This document shows positions 1-51,154 of a DNA stretch of 51,154 nt, in pieces. The position numbers and the translations under genes are program-made. Location of the stretch: positions 1 through 51,154 of IMG/VR virus record IMGVR_UViG_3300018946_000001; one strand, 5' to 3'. This DNA comes from a virus. Within the stretch, counting starts at the first letter, position 1. Each line of letters opens with the position of its first letter. A model generated the notes under the pieces. It made no database searches, was not told the origin of the DNA, and saw only the letters and a program-made list of their open reading frames with translations.

Positions 1-127
1 AATCAGAGGGTACAGCAATGATCAAAGCAATTCAGACCCGCTATAACGGCTACCATTTCCGTAGCAGGATCGAGGCTAGGTGGGCTGTGTTCCTTGATGC
101 GCTTGGTATTAAATATGAATACGAGGC
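1..127. repeat. Terminal overlap, copy 1 (identical to 51028-51154)
   Basis: The first 127 nt are repeated exactly as the last 127 nt. The overlap lies inside coding sequence. Confidence 0.95.
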
Positions 128-752
128 CGAAGGGTACGAACTGAACGAGGCTGGGCGTTATCTGCCTGACTTCTGGTTACCAGAGCAGGGGCATTATATT
201 GAGATCAAAGGGCATAAGAATGTTAGCGAGAAGGAACTTATAAAGTGTGCTGCACTTGCCATGGAGCATCCTGTCGTGGTGTTCTGTGGAAATATTGAAG
301 CGCCTGTGTTGCGAAATGGAGTTGTTGTTGGCGGCTGCGATGCGAGTAGTTTCAAGACTATAAAAAGGATGCCTTCGTTTACAGCGATGCGAGATTCTGG
401 TGGCTTACGCAAGGCGTACAACATGCCCTGGTATACCTACGAGTTAAAGTCTATAACAGGGTCATCTGTGCTGTTTATCCATGAAGATTGGCAGCACGGA
501 GCAATGTTAGATGATCGTCCACACTTTTGGCATGAGCGCAATGATGGGAGCTTTCATGTGTGGCCTTACCCGAGCATGGAGTTTTCAGACACACCAACTG
601 GCAAAATTGCGATTGTGCCCAGTGACGAGTCTTCCTCTGACTATATAAACATTGTCCCCCAGTTCACCACCCGTTCACTCAATAGTCCGCGATTGATCGA
701 GGCATACAACGCAGCTCGCAGCGCCCGCTTTGAGTACGGAGAGCGGCCATGA
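18..752 (+). CDS. PD-(D/E)XK-family nuclease (N-terminal domain) with an uncharacterised C-terminal half
   Basis: YHFRSRIEARWAVFLDALGIKYEYE...YLPDFWL...HYIEIKG gives a D...E-x-K core. The start is coupled to the primase stop across the circle junction by ATGA. Confidence 0.7.
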   Translation: MIKAIQTRYNGYHFRSRIEARWAVFLDALGIKYEYEAEGYELNEAGRYLPDFWLPEQGHYIEIKGHKNVSEKELIKCAALAMEHPVVVFCGNIEAPVLRNGVVVGGCDASSFKTIKRMPSFTAMRDSGGLRKAYNMPWYTYELKSITGSSVLFIHEDWQHGAMLDDRPHFWHERNDGSFHVWPYPSMEFSDTPTGKIAIVPSDESSSDYINIVPQFTTRSLNSPRLIEAYNAARSARFEYGERP

Positions 753-1282
753 CAACCATACCAATGATCAAGCCCCGTGTGCCCGTCACGCTGTATATCA
801 AAGAGCGCGATCCGTTATACGCTCCCTACCAGCAGCCGATAGATGATGCAATTGATGTGCTCTTTGAGGACGTAGCGCCCCAGCCGATGCAGCGGATTAT
901 CCGCATCAAGTGCCGCGCGTGTGGCGCGGTGACGCCTCGGCCCGCACCAGACGCCCCACCGCTGCTCTGCCCGCTGTGTGCCGAGCGGGAGGCAGCACAG
1001 GAAGCTCTCGACGCCGCCTACGCCGCAATGGTCGCAGCGGGCGCAGCCTTCGACGCCAGCGTGGATAGCGCCGACTCGGCTACGCTGGCCCGCTGGCAGG
1101 CCGTCCAAGCGGCGCGGGTGGCAGCCTACGACCCAAGCGACCCGACGAAGACCGACGCGCTGGATCGGCGGCTACAGATCACGCGGGAGCTGAAAGACGG
1201 GCTCGCTGCTATCCTCCTCGCTGAGGATGCATTGGTGGCAGCGGTGGCGCAGTGGGAGCAGCGGCGGCAGGTGGGACGATGA
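749..1282 (+). CDS. Hypothetical Ala-rich protein with a CxxC...CxxC zinc ribbon
   Basis: CRACG...CPLCAE motif. ATGA stop-start overlaps at both ends (749, 1279). Confidence 0.55.
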   Translation: MTTIPMIKPRVPVTLYIKERDPLYAPYQQPIDDAIDVLFEDVAPQPMQRIIRIKCRACGAVTPRPAPDAPPLLCPLCAEREAAQEALDAAYAAMVAAGAAFDASVDSADSATLARWQAVQAARVAAYDPSDPTKTDALDRRLQITRELKDGLAAILLAEDALVAAVAQWEQRRQVGR

Positions 1283-2139
1283 TCTTTTATCCCTCCAAGA
1301 ACAATAATATCTTGAATCGAGAAGTATTCACGCCAGAAGCGGTCAACGGCTGCGCGATGGTCAATCCGCACTACCCTGTAGATCTTGCGCCAGGCACCCG
1401 CTATATCATCGACAGCGGCGCGTTTCAAGAACTCGACATGCTGAACCGCGTACAACCCTGGACGGCTCTGAAGCGGCAACTCGAACTAGAAACACAGATT
1501 GAATTACGCGGCCATCATAGCCACGCAGAGGCGCTTGTGACCTATGACATGCTCTGCGGCGTGGATGAGGCCATTGTGAACGGCAAGCGGGTCAAGCAGC
1601 GCGGCACAGAGACAACCGCTGCACCAGCTGTGCTTGAAACCTTACGTAGTGCTCACTATTACCACAGCCAAGCGCACCGGGTACGCGGCGCGATTGCCTA
1701 CGCGGCGCAAGGGGCGAGCCCGACGCAGTATCTAGGGTGCGTCGCCGACCTGCTGCCGTTGCTGCGCCCCGGCCGCGACTGGCTGGCCTTTGGCGGCTTC
1801 TGCATTCTGGGCCGCGTGCGTTCGCTGCTGCCTGTGTTCGCCGCCACCCTCGCACTTGTGGTGCCACTTCTGGCGGCGTCGGGCATTCACCGGGCCCATG
1901 TGCTTGGGGTGTGCGTGCCAGAAGCCATTGCGATGATCACCGAGGCCGAACGGCGCTACGGTGTTCAGTTCTCAACTGACAGCAGCGCCCCCGAAATGTG
2001 CGGCATTATGGGGCGCACCTACCGTAACGGACGCCAGCACGCTACCTATAGCAAAGCACAGAAGTATCTGGATTATCACCCGGCGCAGCTCGCCATTACA
2101 AACATACAGGAGTACACCACATGGCTCGCCCAACAATAG
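1279..2139 (+). CDS. dpdA: DpdA-like DNA (7-deazaguanine) transglycosylase, TGT superfamily
   Basis: Motifs YIIDSGAFQ, AAQGAS, AFGGFCILGR and AHVLGVC follow the DpdA/TGT pattern. Start chosen at the ATG in the ATGA overlap with the upstream stop. Followed by a YhhQ-like gene. Confidence 0.65.
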   Translation: MIFYPSKNNNILNREVFTPEAVNGCAMVNPHYPVDLAPGTRYIIDSGAFQELDMLNRVQPWTALKRQLELETQIELRGHHSHAEALVTYDMLCGVDEAIVNGKRVKQRGTETTAAPAVLETLRSAHYYHSQAHRVRGAIAYAAQGASPTQYLGCVADLLPLLRPGRDWLAFGGFCILGRVRSLLPVFAATLALVVPLLAASGIHRAHVLGVCVPEAIAMITEAERRYGVQFSTDSSAPEMCGIMGRTYRNGRQHATYSKAQKYLDYHPAQLAITNIQEYTTWLAQQ

Positions 2140-2636
2140 GCTACATCGCCCTCGCCTGCTATGTGTCAACCATCGTCGCCGCGAACGCCGCCATTGGCAC
2201 CTTCGGCCTGGTGCCCGTGGGCCTCGGCCTCCTCGCACCAGCGGGCGTGTACTTTGCTGGACTTGCCTTCGTGCTGCGTGACATCCTACAGGACACGCTC
2301 GGCCGCCGCTGGACGCTCGGCGCGATCGCGGCCGGGGCGCTGCTCTCTGGTCTGCTTGACCCGGCCTTAGCTATTGCCAGCGGCGGGGCGTTCCTCCTGA
2401 GTGAACTGGCGGATATGGTGGTCTATACACCACTGCGCCGCCGCTCGTGGCTGTGGGCGGCGTTGGCGAGCAGCACCGTGGGGCTGGCAGTCGATAGCGT
2501 GCTGTTCCTCTGGCTGGCATTCGGCAGCCTGGACTTCCTCGCGGGGCAGATCGTCGGTAAGGTGTGGGTGACGCTGCTGTGTGTGGTCATCTGGGGGCTG
2601 GTGCGCGGGCAGCGACGGGCGGAGGTGGCGCGATGA
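2121..2636 (+). CDS. yhhQ: YhhQ/VUT-family queuosine-precursor (preQ0) transporter-like membrane protein
   Basis: Polytopic membrane protein. FVLRDILQDTLG, SGGAFLLSELADMVVYTPLRRRSW and STVGLAVDSVLF align by eye to E. coli YhhQ (DUF165). Confidence 0.7.
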   Translation: MARPTIGYIALACYVSTIVAANAAIGTFGLVPVGLGLLAPAGVYFAGLAFVLRDILQDTLGRRWTLGAIAAGALLSGLLDPALAIASGGAFLLSELADMVVYTPLRRRSWLWAALASSTVGLAVDSVLFLWLAFGSLDFLAGQIVGKVWVTLLCVVIWGLVRGQRRAEVAR

Positions 2637-3142
2637 CAACAGGCGGCTATGTGGATATTCCACTCAGCCTCTACGGCTATGGCGAGCCGGAGTCGCCCAC
2701 GCCGCTTGCCATTGTGCGGCGGCGCATCCAGCGCAAGCAATGTGCCGCGTGTGGGGCAACACTACGAGATACGCGACGACGGTTGTGTGGGGCGTGTCAA
2801 AAGGCAGGGTTGAAGTATTGCCCCGCCTGCGAGACGGTCAAGGCGGTTGATGCATTCAGTGTGAAGCGGCGCGATGTGAGCGGGCGCGAGGCGTATTGTT
2901 GGGAGTGTGATGGACGCCGTGAACCACCGCACCGCCAACGCAAAAGCACGAACCCGCCGCGCCGCCGGCGCGAAAGCGTTGAAGTTCACGAACAGCGTGG
3001 AAAGTTGCTTGTGGAGCTTCACGACAAAGATGGACTCACCTGGGAGCAGGCGGGGGCGCAGTTTGGCATTAGTAAACTTGCGGCGAAGTCCCACGCCCGG
3101 CGATGGCGGGTGCGACAGCAACAACAGGAAGGTACACGATGA
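2633..3142 (+). CDS. Cys-rich zinc-ribbon protein with a C-terminal HTH
   Basis: CAACG..LCGAC..KYCPAC..CWEC, then LTWEQAGAQFGISKLAAKSHARR (HTH-like). ATGA-coupled start. Paralogous Cys pattern in 4384-4830. Confidence 0.55.
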   Translation: MTTGGYVDIPLSLYGYGEPESPTPLAIVRRRIQRKQCAACGATLRDTRRRLCGACQKAGLKYCPACETVKAVDAFSVKRRDVSGREAYCWECDGRREPPHRQRKSTNPPRRRRESVEVHEQRGKLLVELHDKDGLTWEQAGAQFGISKLAAKSHARRWRVRQQQQEGTR

Positions 3143-3813
3143 GCGGGCTACGAATCATCGGCTATGCCGAGCCATCCCCCGAGCAGTGGGATTTTACGAT
3201 CCGAGGAATGCGTAACTCCTGGGAGAGTTGGCAGAAGGGTGATAGCGAGGTGCAGCACGATGCAGAACTGGCTATTGGTTTCGACTTCGGCCCAGCAGAT
3301 ACCGCGCTCGCCTTGCGCCTGGCACAGATCGGCAGCGACCACGGCAAGTACCTGCGAATGCTGCCGGTGATTGTGGAGATCGAGGCCCCCGGCTACTGGT
3401 GGAAGGAGTTTGATACGTACCGCGTGGGCGTCGAGGCCAGCGACGTGACGCAGAACAGCACCAGCATGATGCACACCCTCGGCCGGGAGCCGTTCCATAG
3501 CGATATGTTTTGCTTCGAGGGTATTGATCCAGTAGCCGCTGACTATCTTGTGCGCTCCCTGAACAGGCTGCGCGATGCCTGGATCGCCACGGGCAAGCAC
3601 AAAGGCCCAGAGGCCGCCGCGTGGCGTGCGCTCCAACAGGCGGTGCCGTATGGCTTCCTCTACCATCGCACGGTGAGCCTCAACTATCAGGTGCTTCGCT
3701 CGATCTACCACGCTCGCCGCAACCATCGGCTCGCCGAGTGGCGCACGTTCTGTACCTGGATTGAAATGTTGCCCAACAGTGCCCTTCTTACCACAACGAA
3801 AGAAAAATCATGA
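3139..3813 (+). CDS. Divergent ThyX-fold (flavin-dependent thymidylate synthase-like) protein lacking the canonical RHR signature
   Basis: EIEAPGYWWKEFDTYRVGVEASDVTQNSTSMMH and VSLNYQVLRSIYHARRNHRLAEWR parallel the ThyX RHRxxS...SxRY and N-R-hf-R-AQwEiR blocks. Key residues are substituted. Confidence 0.5.
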   Translation: MSGLRIIGYAEPSPEQWDFTIRGMRNSWESWQKGDSEVQHDAELAIGFDFGPADTALALRLAQIGSDHGKYLRMLPVIVEIEAPGYWWKEFDTYRVGVEASDVTQNSTSMMHTLGREPFHSDMFCFEGIDPVAADYLVRSLNRLRDAWIATGKHKGPEAAAWRALQQAVPYGFLYHRTVSLNYQVLRSIYHARRNHRLAEWRTFCTWIEMLPNSALLTTTKEKS

Positions 3814-4367
3814 TACTCGGCAGCAACGCGATCCGTGACGCGCTCACCAGCGGCGCAATCGTCTGTGACCCAGCGCCCGGCAAGATTGAGGGAACGCACA
3901 TCGACGTGACCATAGGGGAGCAGTATTGGTTACGTGACCCGGGCGTAGGCAATATACACATAGGCGATGTAGATCCGCATCGTGTGTTTCGACTGCACCA
4001 CGCCTTCATCACAAATAACGACATTGTTATTCCTCCGGGGTTCTTTGCACTGTGTCACACGATGCAGTTTATTGGCACGACAGTACCCGATTTGCTGCCT
4101 ATTTTGCATACGCGAAGCACCTTTGCTCGGCATGGATTATCAGTACACGAGTCGGCTGGCCTTGGTGACTGCGGGTTCGTATCACGGTGGACATTAGAGA
4201 TATGGAACCATCGGCACTATCCAATCCTTATCCCCGTTGGAGCACGTGTCGGCTGCGTATCGTTTGAGCGGGTAGAAGGCAACGACGAGCTGTATGTTGG
4301 GCGCTACAACGTGAGCAAAGAGGAGTGGACGCCGGAGGCGATGCTGCCGAGGCAAGGAAACTTCTAA
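3810..4367 (+). CDS. dcd: dCTP deaminase / dUTPase-superfamily protein
   Basis: HTRSTFARHGLSVHESAGLGDCGFVSRWTLEIWN...GARVGCVSF matches the Dcd S-x-aR-Gl...dpGf-G-tLE-N...Q-f pattern. Confidence 0.7.
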   Translation: MILGSNAIRDALTSGAIVCDPAPGKIEGTHIDVTIGEQYWLRDPGVGNIHIGDVDPHRVFRLHHAFITNNDIVIPPGFFALCHTMQFIGTTVPDLLPILHTRSTFARHGLSVHESAGLGDCGFVSRWTLEIWNHRHYPILIPVGARVGCVSFERVEGNDELYVGRYNVSKEEWTPEAMLPRQGNF

Positions 4368-4830: not shown

Positions 4831-4981
4831 AAGCCCCACCAAACGCCACCAGCGGCCACAGGAGCGACGATAGCGCGGCAAACGACGCAATACACAGGAG
4901 CACGACGATGCAGACCAGCAGAGCCACAGAACATACCGAACAATGCGCGTTGATCGAGCGGTGCCAGTGGAGGCAACAGCA

Positions 4982-5266
4982 ATGAGACGAGCTGCAAAGG
5001 TTGATCATAACCACGCCACTATTGTGCAAGCGTTGCGGCAAGTGGGTGCAACGGTACAGAGCCTCGCTGCTGTAGGGCAAGGCTGCCCCGATCTGCTAGT
5101 TGCTAGGGGTGGTACGAATTATTTGCTAGAGATTAAGAACCCTGCCCAGCGACCCAGCGACCAACGGCTAACACCAGATGAGCAGCAGTGGCATCAGGTG
5201 TGGCGGGGGCATGTTGTTGTGGTGCGAACCGTGGATGAGGCTTTAAAAGCAGTGGGGGCGATTTGA
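4982..5266 (+). CDS. VRR-NUC-type PD-(D/E)XK nuclease
   Basis: DHNHATIVQALRQVG...GCPDLLV...YLLEIK...LTPDEQQW motif set. The ATG at 4982 is ATGA-coupled to a 25-codon upstream micro-ORF (4908-4985) that has an AGGAG RBS. Confidence 0.7.
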   Translation: MRRAAKVDHNHATIVQALRQVGATVQSLAAVGQGCPDLLVARGGTNYLLEIKNPAQRPSDQRLTPDEQQWHQVWRGHVVVVRTVDEALKAVGAI

Positions 5267-45384: not shown

Positions 45385-45915
45385 ATGACCACATTACTAC
45401 CAAGCCGACTTGATCTCGGCATAGATGATCCGTATCTGATGGATGCGGGTGCGGCAACAGACGGGTGGTATACCCCTGCAACGCTGATCGGGCTGGCGCA
45501 TCTTCTCTTAGGCGCTATTGACCTTGACCCGGCATCGTGCCAAGCAGCACAAGCAGTGGTAAAAGCCAAGCGCTACCACACTAAAGCTGACGACGGGCTT
45601 ATGCAGCCGTGGACGGGGCGAGTATGGCTGAACCCGCCATACTCAGCGCCGACCGTCTGGGTACGTAAGGTTCTAACACATTACCAGAGCGGCGACATTA
45701 GCCAGGCGCTTGTACTCACCAACAGTTACACCGAGACAAACTGGTGGCAGGATCTCGCCGCTGTCGGCATGGTGTTGTTCTTCCGTGGACGCCAAGAGTT
45801 TTGGCATCCTGAAAAAGTAGGTGGACGCAATCGCACGGGGCAAACACTTGTCTATCTCGGCAAAGAGCAAGCACTATTCCGATCTATCTTCGGTCACTTG
45901 GGCGTCGTTCGATAG
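45385..45915 (+). CDS. dam: Phage Dam-family DNA N6-adenine methyltransferase
   Basis: WYTPATLI...IDLDPAS...GRVWLNPPYS...LVLTNSYTETNWW...FFRGRQEF. NPPY catalytic motif. Confidence 0.75.
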   Translation: MTTLLPSRLDLGIDDPYLMDAGAATDGWYTPATLIGLAHLLLGAIDLDPASCQAAQAVVKAKRYHTKADDGLMQPWTGRVWLNPPYSAPTVWVRKVLTHYQSGDISQALVLTNSYTETNWWQDLAAVGMVLFFRGRQEFWHPEKVGGRNRTGQTLVYLGKEQALFRSIFGHLGVVR

Positions 45916-48637: not shown

Positions 48638-48654
48638 AGAAATAAGGTGTGTGT

Positions 48655-51048
48655 ATGACTGCTGCCACGCTAACAACTGCTCGCACCCTGATCGCCGCTG
48701 GCATCTCGGTGATTCCCATCCATGATGATGGCAGCAAAGCACCGACCCTGAAGTGGAAATTATTCCAGGAACGCACGCCAACAACCAAGGAAGTTGATGG
48801 CTGGTTACGCAATAGCGGCAAAGGGATCGCGGTTGTCACTGGCGCAGTGAGTGGCAACCTTGAAACCTTCGATGCCGATGCGCCTGAACTGTTTGACCAG
48901 TGGGCGGCGAACGTAGAGCACGACGCGCCCGGACTGTTGGCCCGCATCCCGATGGCGGCCACGCCTACGGGTGGTCGCCATCTGTACTACCGTTGCGATG
49001 CGCCGCCCCCTGGCAATATGAAACTGGCACAACGTCACCCAACACCAGCAGAGCAGGCAGCAGCGCCCGGCCTACTGGCGGTGGTGCTCTTTGAGACGCG
49101 GGGCGAGGGTGGCTATGCTATTGTGCCACCCTCGCCAGCCGCATGCCATCCGAGTGGTAAGCCCTATGTGATGCTGAATCTTGCCATTGAAGATGCCCCT
49201 ACCCTTACCGCCGACGAGCGAGCAATATTAATCAGTAACGCACGGATCTTTAACACCTATGTGCCGGCGGCCCAGGTGGTACGGGGCACAAAGCCTCGCA
49301 GCAACGCCACAGGCGATGAGCGACCCGGCGACCGTTATAACCGCGAGGCGGATTGGTCTGATCTGCTGCCGCGCCACGGCTGGCACTCGATGGGCGTGCG
49401 GGGCGAAGTCGAGATGTGGCAGCGGCCTGGCAAGGATGGGCGCGGTCTCAGCGCCACTACAAACTACGGCGGCAGCAACCTGCTGTACGTCTTCAGTTCG
49501 AGCGCCGCCCCCTTCGAGCCGGAACATGCCTACTCGCTCTTTGCTGCAAAGGTGCTCTTGGAGCATAACGGCGATTACAGCGAGGCAGGGAAAGCACTAT
49601 GGAAAGAGCAACAGATGAATACGCCAACCCCTAGCAAGCCTCGTGTCAATACTGCGACCGGCGAAATATTGAACGGTGATGATCGGCCAGCACCGAGGCC
49701 CGCTATTGAAACCGAGGACGGCAACCGCTACATCCTGGTGCCAAAAATCCCGCTTGATGTCAACGACCTGTTGACGATGGAGCGCAAGCCGGTAGTGTGG
49801 TATGCCCCCAACTTTCTACGTGAAGGACTGGGCTTGATTGTGGGGCAGCCCAACGTCGGCAAAACACCGGCGGCGGTGCAGCTCGCCATCGCCCTGGCGA
49901 CGGGCACGAAGTGGCTGGGGGCTATCGAGTGCCCACAGTGCAATGTGTTGTATCTCGGTGTGGAGTACAGCGCCCAAGAGCTTATCCCGATGTTTGATAT
50001 TTCCCGCATGGGTATGTCAATCCCTCGTGGCCGTCTGCACGTTAAGACAATCGAGGATGATTTCCCCCAGACACCAGAGGATGCCCTAGCCGAGCTTGAT
50101 TGGTATATGCGAGTGATGCAGATTAACGTCGTCATCATCGATGTGCTAACGGCCTTTCTGCCCCCCGAGAAGTTCAAGCAGAACGTGTATCGTGGCGACT
50201 ACTCCGAACTGAAGCCGTATCACAAGCTCGCCCTGCACTACAACGCCGCAATCCTCGGCGTGTGGCACGCATCGAAGCGAGAGGCCGACCCGAAGATCAT
50301 GTACAACGGATCGACCGGCATGTGGGCTGCGGCGGCCAGCCGTATGGCGATGTACCAGGACCAGGAGCAACGAGTACGCATCGCCTCATTCCCGCGCATG
50401 GGCGATAAGGTGGATTGGGCCTTGACCCAGGAAGTGACCAGCCGGGGCCGTCGCTGGATTGTCTCTGACACCGCACCAGAGCCAATGATGGGCAGCACCG
50501 AGCAGGCTATTTACCGCTTCCTGAAGGACAACGCTACCGACGTATTGCCCCTCGGCCCAGGCACCATAGCCGAGATGACTGGCCTCCCCAACAACACCGT
50601 AAAGGTAACGGTGCGGCGTATGTTCCTCAAGAATCTGTTACAGCAGGTTGGTAGCAGCGGTGGCTATTACGTAGAGCCAGCCAAGACACCAGAGGATGTT
50701 GTAACCGATGAAACCCTTGAAACTTCTGTAACCGATGTAACCTTTGTAACTTCAGATGATTTATTTGAAGCTCAAAAGGTTACAAATGTAACCGATTGTA
50801 ACCCTGTTTGTAACCCTGTTTCAGCGCATCAGGACGCCGCAAACGAAGGTGGGTTACAAAAGTTACACGATATTCCAGGTTACAAGGTTTCAGGCGCGGT
50901 TACAACCAATTATTCCTATGACGGCGTGCAGTCTGGTAATGGTCCGGTTGTGTGGCGCGTATTCAACGATACCACCGATGCCATTGTGGGTGAGTACACC
51001 AGCGAAGCCGACGCGATAGCCGCAATCAATCAGAGGGTACAGCAATGA
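48655..51048 (+). CDS. Bifunctional primase-polymerase (Prim-Pol N-terminal domain) / RepA-RecA-like P-loop helicase with a C-terminal wHTH
   Basis: AGISVIPIHDDGSKAP..KWK...GIAVVTG...ETRGEGGYAIVPPS (Prim-Pol). LIVGQPNVGKT (Walker A), VVIIDVL (Walker B). IAEMTGLPNNTVKVTVRRM. Confidence 0.8.
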   Translation: MTAATLTTARTLIAAGISVIPIHDDGSKAPTLKWKLFQERTPTTKEVDGWLRNSGKGIAVVTGAVSGNLETFDADAPELFDQWAANVEHDAPGLLARIPMAATPTGGRHLYYRCDAPPPGNMKLAQRHPTPAEQAAAPGLLAVVLFETRGEGGYAIVPPSPAACHPSGKPYVMLNLAIEDAPTLTADERAILISNARIFNTYVPAAQVVRGTKPRSNATGDERPGDRYNREADWSDLLPRHGWHSMGVRGEVEMWQRPGKDGRGLSATTNYGGSNLLYVFSSSAAPFEPEHAYSLFAAKVLLEHNGDYSEAGKALWKEQQMNTPTPSKPRVNTATGEILNGDDRPAPRPAIETEDGNRYILVPKIPLDVNDLLTMERKPVVWYAPNFLREGLGLIVGQPNVGKTPAAVQLAIALATGTKWLGAIECPQCNVLYLGVEYSAQELIPMFDISRMGMSIPRGRLHVKTIEDDFPQTPEDALAELDWYMRVMQINVVIIDVLTAFLPPEKFKQNVYRGDYSELKPYHKLALHYNAAILGVWHASKREADPKIMYNGSTGMWAAAASRMAMYQDQEQRVRIASFPRMGDKVDWALTQEVTSRGRRWIVSDTAPEPMMGSTEQAIYRFLKDNATDVLPLGPGTIAEMTGLPNNTVKVTVRRMFLKNLLQQVGSSGGYYVEPAKTPEDVVTDETLETSVTDVTFVTSDDLFEAQKVTNVTDCNPVCNPVSAHQDAANEGGLQKLHDIPGYKVSGAVTTNYSYDGVQSGNGPVVWRVFNDTTDAIVGEYTSEADAIAAINQRVQQ
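50700..50904. repeat. Iteron array: 7 direct TGTAAC(C) plus 5 inverted (G)GTTACA copies
   Basis: TGTAACC at 50700, 50727, 50736, 50787, 50797 and 50809. TGTAACT at 50745. GGTTACA at 50778, 50852, 50878 and 50898. AGTTACA at 50861. Confidence 0.85.
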
Positions 51049-51154
51049 TCAAAGCAATTCAGACCCGCTATAACGGCTACCATTTCCGTAGCAGGATCGA
51101 GGCTAGGTGGGCTGTGTTCCTTGATGCGCTTGGTATTAAATATGAATACGAGGC
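51028..51154. repeat. Terminal overlap, copy 2 (identical to 1-127)
   Basis: Exact repeat of 1-127. It contains the primase stop (51046-51048) and the ATG (51045) that equals position 18. Confidence 0.95.

Follow-up and report, generated by a model that had tools for sequence, protein, structure and literature searches.

A divergent DpdA-like protein encoded with a compact YhhQ-family membrane protein in a closed phage genome: a predicted salvage module for 7-deazaguanine DNA modification

DpdA is regarded as the signature gene for viral 7-deazaguanine DNA modification (PMC10516641). In an earlier survey, 76 phages were found to carry DpdA only, for which reliance on host preQ0 or on its uptake was proposed, and homologs of the transporter YhhQ were noted in phages (Hutinet 2019, PMC6884629). 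Specifically, Supplementary Data 1 of that study records DpdA and YhhQ only, under adjacent accession numbers, for Clostridium phage CDKM15, halophage eHP-6, and Sinorhizobium phage phiLM21. Here, we analyzed a 51,154-nt stretch of viral DNA comprising positions 1 to 51,154 of IMG/VR record IMGVR_UViG_3300018946_000001 (hereafter, the window), in which two overlapping open reading frames (ORFs), ORF1 and ORF2 (Table 1), encode a putative DpdA-like transglycosylase and a membrane protein of the VUT/YhhQ family. We favor, with some reservation, the reading that together they form a salvage variant, only two genes long, of the module by which phages modify their DNA with 7-deazaguanines. The architecture of a DpdA with an importer is already known; what is new is the unrecognized subfamily to which ORF1 belongs.

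The layout of phiLM21 was confirmed from its record: the DpdA (gp25, annotated as 'queuine tRNA-ribosyltransferase') is directly followed by a compact VUT protein (gp26), and then by a methyltransferase and DnaB. As in the window, the pair is located in the replication module and no preQ0 synthesis genes are catalogued for the phage. However, ORF1 is remote from gp25 in sequence (29% identity over 118 aa, pairwise E 0.003; 59% probability in a profile-profile comparison with hhalign), and gp25 belongs to a group with mycobacteriophages Orion and PG1, most members of which have a CxxHxxC..C arrangement after a DSM motif (gapped in gp25) that is absent from the ORF1 family. In Escherichia phage CAjan, in which dPreQ0 has been shown experimentally, a DpdA of the DpdA1 type (gp35) and a 159-aa YhhQ-like protein (gp41) are encoded in one cluster, again as in the window. 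The catalytic motifs of gp35 and ORF1 align and neither matches the Pfam TGT (tRNA-guanine transglycosylase) family, although there is no BLAST-level similarity between the two. Unlike the window, the CAjan cluster also has folE, queD, queE, and queC, so that this phage supplies itself with preQ0, and it can do without its yhhQ.

Coupled pairs of transporter and DpdA genes were present in other phages as well. In Pectobacterium phage PEAT2, listed as having DpdA only, the gene for a VUT protein (gp18) overlaps that for the DpdA (gp19), and in Streptococcus phage Dp-1 the gene for QueT overlaps that for DpdA, the differences from the window being that QueT is of the energy-coupling factor (ECF) type and that Dp-1 has a full preQ0/preQ1 pathway. 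In both, gene order is reversed relative to the window, with the transporter first. The PEAT2 DpdA had no detectable profile similarity to the ORF1 family in hhalign, an uninformative comparison made with the PEAT2 sequence alone. DpdA and VUT genes are also located close together in Arthrobacter phage Aoka. Given these precedents (phiLM21, CDKM15, and eHP-6 as DpdA and YhhQ only, the PEAT2 pair, and yhhQ in the dpdA cluster of CAjan), the view taken in the initial, sequence-only reading of this DNA, that a virus with its own importer for a DNA-modification substrate is unusual, was overstated.

Outside phages, the DpdA of the Salmonella Montevideo Dpd restriction-modification system (PDB 7UI4) shares a TGT-like barrel with ORF1, but, at 413 aa, has a structural Zn site as well as four insertions (Ins8, of 128 residues, among them), and depends on the DpdB ATPase, whereas ORF1 is a minimal 286-aa barrel that lacks the Zn site. 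Two remote viral subfamilies, DpdA3 (Cellulophaga phage phiST and Campylobacter phages) and DpdA4 (Halovirus HVTV-1), were recognized by HHpred together with a deazaguanine gene neighborhood (PMC10516641), and like ORF1 are small TGT-fold proteins that ordinary annotation misses.

The AlphaFold2 model of ORF1 (predicted local distance difference test [pLDDT] 96, predicted template modeling score [pTM] 0.92) is a TGT-type (beta/alpha)8 TIM barrel. When it was compared to the PDB using Foldseek, the top match was the TGT of T. maritima (2ash; E 5e-8, query TM-score [TMq] 0.63), followed by bacterial DpdA (7ui4; E 1.3e-7) and murine QTRT1. This top group had E-values of 5e-8 to 6e-6 and TMq of 0.60-0.65, versus E ≥ 1e-4 and TMq ≤ 0.47 for generic TIM barrels. 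Against BFVD, DpdAs from phages and archaeal viruses were placed first (E 1e-10 to 5e-5), including those of Bella96, nt-1 (a DpdA2), Motura, Mufasa8, SBRV1, and phiST. The last of these is a 259-aa protein (M4SLA5) that is probably the DpdA3 described for phiST. Identity of ORF1 to any TGT or DpdA among the structural matches was 11-16%.

That the best structural match in the PDB is a tRNA TGT is what would be expected if the pair acted on RNA or on the precursor pool, with ORF1 being tRNA-TGT-like and, together with the importer, raising or rewiring queuosine-family modification of host tRNA in favor of phage translation. Phages that have preQ0 genes and no DpdA may boost queuosine in tRNA (Hutinet 2019, PMC6884629), and Orion provides a case of a DpdA-only phage without DNA modification. 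Nevertheless, we consider action on tRNA improbable: ORF1 has neither the Zn subdomain nor, at its C-terminus, a PUA extension or one for binding tRNA, the viral proteins that it most resembles in structure are DpdAs acting on DNA, its relatives are neighbored by DNA methyltransferases and replication genes and in two cases are fused to DNA-binding ParB domains (below), and no tRNA genes were present in the phage genome.

Residues conserved across the ORF1 family comprised D45 (DSGAFQ), D90 (YD), Q144-G145, G172-G173 (GGFCI), H207 (HxLGV), D234 (STDSS), and G245, and in the AlphaFold2 model all of these motif residues are located at the C-terminal ends of barrel strands. Within DSGAF (45-49), S46, A48, and F49 were invariant in the family alignment, while D45 and G47 were conserved in at least 90% of sequences. 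In hhalign, the family aligned to phage DpdA1 with 80% probability (E 1.4e-5, 158 columns), pairing DSGAF with DSGAF, YD with LD, QG with HxG, GG with GG, HxLGV with HxFGI, and TDSS with CDSS (ORF1 family and DpdA1, respectively). The DpdA1 alignment had 14 sequences and its profile was built from ten GenBank phages, a homolog search with the CAjan DpdA having recovered only relatives at 68% identity or more. Specifically, the D45 motif aligned to that of CAjan D63 (DSGAF), and the invariant D234 to DpdA1 D206, with an invariant Gly 11 residues further on in both families, a correspondence seen in the sequence-profile alignment only. Of the family-invariant D90 and Q144-G145, the former aligned to the invariant LD105 of DpdA1 and the latter lay near H132-x-G, in a middle region where hhalign confidence is low. 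In bacterial DpdA, D95 is the acid/base, D256 is the nucleophile, F99 (four residues after D95) is the stacking Phe, D130 and H181 (Q203 in TGT) are base-recognition residues, L236 would have L209 of ORF1 as its counterpart, and D95A or D256A abolishes exchange (PMC10164549). On the strength of these alignments, D45, D90, and D234 of ORF1 appear to correspond to D95, D130, and D256, respectively.

To place ORF1 in genomic context, ORFs were searched in 66 loci with ORF1 homologs, about 40 of them distinct. QueD, QueE, or QueC (the first confirmed as Pfam PTPS) was encoded within 1.1 kb of the ORF1 homolog in nine distinct loci, for example in the order DpdA-like, QueE, QueD, QueC in L037 and L039. 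A VUT gene was directly adjacent in 10 distinct loci, including several of the closest relatives (L018, L028, L029, L030, and L032, at 62-65% identity), while relatives at 43-49% identity mostly had Que genes. Only L042 had both, and many homologs stood alone, with neither VUT nor Que. The QueD, QueE, and QueC genes that flank homologs link the family to the pathway for 7-deazaguanines, as opposed to some other base, and the alternation of partners supports an importer substituting for de novo synthesis. The other neighbors were DNA methyltransferases, DnaB, UvrD, and integrases.

Fusions pointed in the same direction as regards the substrate. In two proteins (P0176, P0183) the ORF1-type barrel is followed C-terminally by ParB_N and HTH_ParB domains, paralleling the partnership of DpdA with DpdB in bacteria and the adjacency of DpdA and ParB in phages CRB2, phi3ST:2, and Mufasa8, and arguing for DNA as the substrate. 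When 55 distant family members were searched against Pfam, such ParB/HTH fusions were the only outcome, with no bridge to TGT, and a phmmer search with phage ParB proteins recovered no ParB beside ORF1 homologs or in the window. Taken together, these independent lines (the fold, the profile-profile motifs, the neighborhoods, and the ParB fusions) assign ORF1 to the TGT/DpdA superfamily.

VUT takes its name from putative vitamin uptake, and few members of the family are known to have been characterized. One could thus imagine a TGT-fold enzyme with other chemistry or another base (a purine analog, or a glycosylase reaction) beside an importer of an unrelated vitamin-like compound, the likeness to DpdA and YhhQ being architectural. 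The low identity of ORF1 to any TGT or DpdA leaves room for this, as does DpdA3, which is thought to use 7-carboxy-7-deazaguanine (CDG), 7-deazaguanine (DG), or 7-amido-7-deazaguanine (ADG), not preQ0. Yet the three catalytic or recognition Asp residues, the GG, and the HxxGV motif are in register with those of DpdA1, and homologs are flanked specifically by QueD, QueE, and QueC, leading us to regard unrelated chemistry as highly improbable.

Several relatives had features of their own. The ORF1-type barrel was one domain of larger proteins of 900-1274 aa (P0173, P0181, P0192, P0200, P0201), of which P0173 has DUF3102 and the others have long regions devoid of Pfam matches. In L006/L023 (a contig from a metagenome-assembled Herpetosiphonaceae genome) and L007, the homolog was located among DNA methyltransferases (C5, N6/N4, and SNF2-fused) with neither VUT nor Que genes, and the same neighborhood held a PP-loop protein resembling PAPS reductase/ATP_bind_3, presumably related to QueC and DndC at the level of a broad superfamily. 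We set aside the idea that these proteins substitute for QueC in the two relatives, and no such gene is present in the window. Additionally, Nannocystis pusilla Na p29 had two near-identical copies of the homolog, on a 39.6-kb contig (L024) and on the 11.9-Mb chromosome (L025), each beside a C5 DNA methylase. Both copies match in two pieces, on ORFs that overlap, suggesting that a frameshift has occurred or that they are pseudogenes.

Membership of ORF2 in the VUT family (DUF165, COG1738), as proposed in the sequence-only reading, is secure. It matched Pfam PF02592 (Vut_1) with 42.2 bits, above the gathering score of 27.2 (E 1.4e-10, residues 81-158 only), and phrog_4899 over its full length (E 8.8e-40), and hydrophobic stretches extend over most of its 171 aa. 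The match to NF008406 scored 25.4 bits, against a cut-off of 252. The closest of the compared phage proteins was phiLM21 gp26 (56% identity, E 4e-38), while CAjan gp41, annotated as 'putative preQ0 transporter', was 34% identical (E 2e-17). Compared to E. coli YhhQ (221 aa; 21% identity), ORF2 is shorter by about 50 residues, accounted for by an N-terminal extension and one loop. When ORF2 was compared with CAjan gp41, E. coli YhhQ, and six metagenomic partners, four residues (D98, S117, D125, F129) did not vary. ORF2 is thus a compact (160-180 aa) phage version of YhhQ, with a 7-deazaguanine precursor of the preQ0/preQ1 type as its predicted substrate.

Compact VUT homologs at 44-47% identity to ORF2 were also identified in Fishburnevirus-type mycobacteriophages (Majeke gp53-gp54, L070, and 12 further records), where their annotation goes no further than 'hypothetical' or 'membrane protein' and the next gene, of 203 aa, is unannotated. 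The preQ0 pathway is reportedly missing from M. smegmatis.

Both genes are real, as shown for ORF1 by its 175 homologs at 47-66% identity, a family that, clustered at 50% identity, has at least 243 representatives (all unnamed), and the confidently modeled fold. The ATG of ORF1 overlaps the upstream stop codon as ATGA; a longer ORF, from a GTG at 1252, is possible, yet every homolog begins MxFYPSKNN. The two ORFs lie as the sequence-only reading described, overlapping by 19 nt (2121-2139), and an AGGAG motif lies 8 bases ahead of the ORF2 ATG. Because both the Shine-Dalgarno sequence and the start of ORF2 sit inside the 3' end of ORF1, translational coupling is plausible, and in relatives the homologous pair likewise overlaps, by 18-19 nt or by 4 nt (L018, L005, L028, L030, L032).

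Positions 1-127 of the window are repeated exactly and in direct orientation at 51028-51154, so that 51,027 bp of it are unique. Copies of this genome were present in public assemblies of 51,168 bp (with a k141 contig name, and circularly permuted relative to the window) and 51,057 bp, which correspond to 51,027 + 141 and 51,027 + 30 bp and would fit assembler k-mer overlaps. With this terminal overlap and a circularly permuted copy from an independent assembly, the genome is a closed circle, as had been stated. In it, no family corresponding to FolE, QueD, QueE, QueC, QueF, Gat-QueC, or ArcS was recorded on any called gene, and HMMs that we built from phage QueC, QueD, QueE, and FolE proteins had zero matches among all window ORFs of at least 40 aa. 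The sequence-only reading was therefore right that biosynthesis genes are lacking, and the dependence on host-made or imported precursor that it deduced follows from this gene content.

In the mechanism that we propose, ORF2 would act as an inner-membrane importer that draws on the medium to raise the intracellular level of a 7-deazaguanine base (preQ0 in the likeliest case, perhaps preQ1 or a related compound), adding to any host-made supply. After replication, ORF1 would swap guanine in phage DNA for that base by the double displacement of the TGT/DpdA enzymes, with D234 as predicted nucleophile and D45 as general acid/base, while base recognition would fall to D90 and Q144 and stacking on the base to F49 and L209. 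Both genes would be translationally coupled and expressed with the replication genes, the primase-helicase being upstream and nucleotide metabolism downstream. That a DpdA can use precursor not made by the phage is indicated by CAjan folE and queC mutants, in which host-derived preQ0 was still incorporated, at a level about 12-fold lower. What was observed comprises the fold, the conserved motifs, the families of both proteins, the coupled gene arrangement, the lack of biosynthesis genes, and the link of the ORF1 family to QueD/E/C or VUT; the choice of DNA over tRNA as target, the base that is used, what is transported and in which direction, and how much modification results and whether it protects are inferences.

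A number of observations weigh against this mechanism. ORF1 had no match, even at E ≤ 1, in Pfam, PHROGs, NCBIfam, or PADLOC, no meaningful match to PDB sequences using phmmer or a 36-sequence profile (hits to T-cell-receptor and designed-repeat proteins were dismissed as spurious), and nothing at E ≤ 1e-3 in a tblastn search of 50,697 GenBank phage records. Its profile-profile probabilities were moderate, at 80% versus DpdA1 and 39-59% versus the phiLM21/Orion type. The structural Zn site (CxCxxC...H) that follows the nucleophile was absent, there being no conserved Cys/His cluster past D234, where the invariant residues were E239, G245, Y266, P268, and W282. Bacterial DpdA requires the DpdB ATPase, yet the genome has no ParB-like gene. 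For ORF2, the score against the queuosine-precursor-transporter equivalog TIGR00697 (34.9 bits) was under the cut-off of 50.95, no compact phage VUT protein is known to transport anything, and the only genetic test of one, deletion of yhhQ in CAjan, had no effect. No close prophage and no tRNA genes were found from which a host, and with it a capacity for preQ0 synthesis, could be assigned. Lastly, in the two DpdA-only phages analyzed using liquid chromatography-tandem mass spectrometry (LC-MS/MS), Orion, whose host lacks preQ0 synthesis, had no modification, and phage 7-11 had 0.02% of G as dADG.

The DpdAs of CAjan, 9g, Dp-1, Qyrzula, phi3ST:2, Mufasa8, Megan, and RHEph05 (validated or annotated), run as a positive control, also lacked a Pfam TGT match, and the CAjan DpdA reached the PADLOC DpdA at only E 0.0013. 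Since validated phage DpdAs (CAjan, 9g) fail to match PF01702 as well, we rejected the missing Pfam match as a refutation of the DpdA assignment. Thus, of the profile check put forward in the sequence-only reading, the part concerning ORF2 was borne out, while that concerning ORF1 gave no match in PADLOC or in Pfam, the latter also missing known phage DpdAs; its description of ORF1 as DpdA-like is instead upheld by the fold, the profile-profile motif alignment, and the gene neighborhood. Likewise, the DpdA1 proteins of CAjan and 9g have no Zn cluster, so that this site is a hallmark of TGT and bacterial DpdA without being shared by every phage DpdA.

ORF1 could be a true DpdA-like enzyme that in practice modifies little or nothing, leaving a low-level or conditional mark that depends on host preQ0, with a marginal role for ORF2. 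In addition to the results for Orion and 7-11, modification by bacterial DpdA and DpdA2 stays below 0.1% of G, CAjan without yhhQ is as the wild type, and many ORF1 homologs have neither VUT nor Que partners. Against this stand the coupling of the VUT gene to ORF1, the retention of their adjacency in 10 distinct loci, and the alternation with QueD/E/C, from which we infer that the supply function is selected. We regard a low-level outcome as unlikely, and hold the same view of one form that it could take, mimicry of a host Dpd-type self mark. The restriction-resistant, G-modified DNA put forward in the sequence-only reading is a prediction, and an overstated one in light of Orion, 7-11, and the unchanged CAjan yhhQ deletion.

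ORF1 appears to belong to a further clade beyond the named DpdA subfamilies, given that it has no tblastn match to any GenBank phage, those with DpdA3 and DpdA4 included. It resembles DpdA1 (CAjan, 9g) and the phiLM21/Orion type at the level of hhalign only, while DpdA2, DpdA3, and DpdA4 were compared indirectly, via the Foldseek matches only. No description of DpdA5, DpdA6, or further subfamilies was found in the literature searched, nor one of an ORF1-type transglycosylase, and a megablast search of GenBank phages with the first 8 kb of the window returned nothing useful. So far, the only sources of the family are metagenomes and, in genomes of Myxococcota and Chloroflexota, prophage-like regions; five of the related loci were from IMG/VR and four from the genome collection, where relatives belonged to Nannocystis (Myxococcota), Herpetosiphonaceae, and Chloroflexia. 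A bolder reading, which we consider doubtful, would have ORF1 founding a DpdA subfamily beyond the bacterial DpdA and DpdA1-4 and performing importer-fed hypermodification from environmental 7-deazaguanines at restriction-protective levels, in a clade that would have three interchangeable supply modes, namely QueD/E/C, a VUT importer, or none besides the enzyme itself.

ORF1 and ORF2 are located within a run of eight genes in which neighboring starts and stops overlap (Table 1).

Table 1. The eight-gene run that contains ORF1 and ORF2, with positions in the 51,154-nt window.
Feature	Position	Strand	Remarks
Prim-Pol/AAA_25 primase-helicase	48649-51048		First of the eight-gene run; its end is position 21 on the circle
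Endonuclease-like protein	18-752	+	4-nt overlap with neighbor
Zn-ribbon/Ala-rich protein	749-1282	+	4-nt overlap with neighbor
ORF1, divergent DpdA-like (TGT-superfamily) TIM barrel, 286 aa	1279-2139	+	Predicted DNA guanine/7-deazaguanine transglycosylase (fold, motifs, neighborhood)
ORF2, compact multi-pass VUT/DUF165 (YhhQ, COG1738) protein, 171 aa	2121-2636	+	Predicted 7-deazaguanine-precursor importer
Coupling junction	2108-2139	+	AGGAG Shine-Dalgarno (2108-2112) and ORF2 start (2121), within the last 32 nt of ORF1
Zn-ribbon protein	2633-3142	+	4-nt overlap with next gene
ThyX-fold protein	3139-3813	+	4-nt overlap with next gene
dCTP-deaminase-like protein	3810-4367	+	Last of the eight-gene run

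The genes from 2633 to 4367 provide a nucleotide-metabolism context and their membership in a deazaguanine module is not implied. The pair of genes upstream of ORF1 (18-1282) had no conserved partnership with it, except that endonuclease-like homologs were present in L022/L060, and the two Zn-ribbon proteins (749-1282, 2633-3142) were rejected as module parts, as neither has a conserved partnership with ORF1 homologs.

The 224-aa product of 3139-3813 (phrog_6721, 'unknown function') had no Pfam or PDB sequence match, and its AlphaFold2 model (pLDDT 93) has the fold of ThyX, the flavin-dependent thymidylate synthase (FDTS). The top 50 Foldseek matches in the PDB were all ThyX/FDTS or related PolB proteins, the best being 3n3y (E 2e-8, TMq 0.65), at 11-16% identity. 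Its family comprises 4,854 homologs at E ≤ 0.001, and each named one among those listed is called hypothetical. The protein may be a thymidylate synthase that has diverged, or may take part in a second modification pathway, for pyrimidines, within the ORF1 operon. The adjacent dCTP-deaminase-like gene matched PF22769 (E 3.5e-23).

Beyond the run, a 107-aa protein encoded at 4943-5266 (+) has by eye a PD-(D/E)xK-like motif (PDLLV...LLEIK); its homologs lie directly upstream of ORF1 homologs in L020 and L050, and in the window it is located 2.8 kb downstream. Finally, a Dam-type N6-adenine DNA methyltransferase (PF05869) is encoded at 45385-45915 (+), which makes it probable that the phage DNA has one or more further modifications.

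As a whole, the pair extends a system that is already known, without amounting to a new type of biology, and is of interest mainly to those who catalog DNA hypermodification. No chemical analysis of a phage with DpdA and YhhQ only was found in the literature consulted, and ORF1 and ORF2 offer a compact two-gene cassette for testing the salvage-only hypothesis of 2019 in E. coli, while the alternation between QueD/E/C and VUT among relatives represents a natural experiment. If the more doubtful reading, of importer-fed hypermodification at protective levels, were true, this would be a virus that imports the substrate for its own DNA modification. Because every standard profile library misses the ORF1 clade, surveys would undercount modified phage genomes, in particular in metagenomes and in the prophage-like regions of Myxococcota and Chloroflexota.

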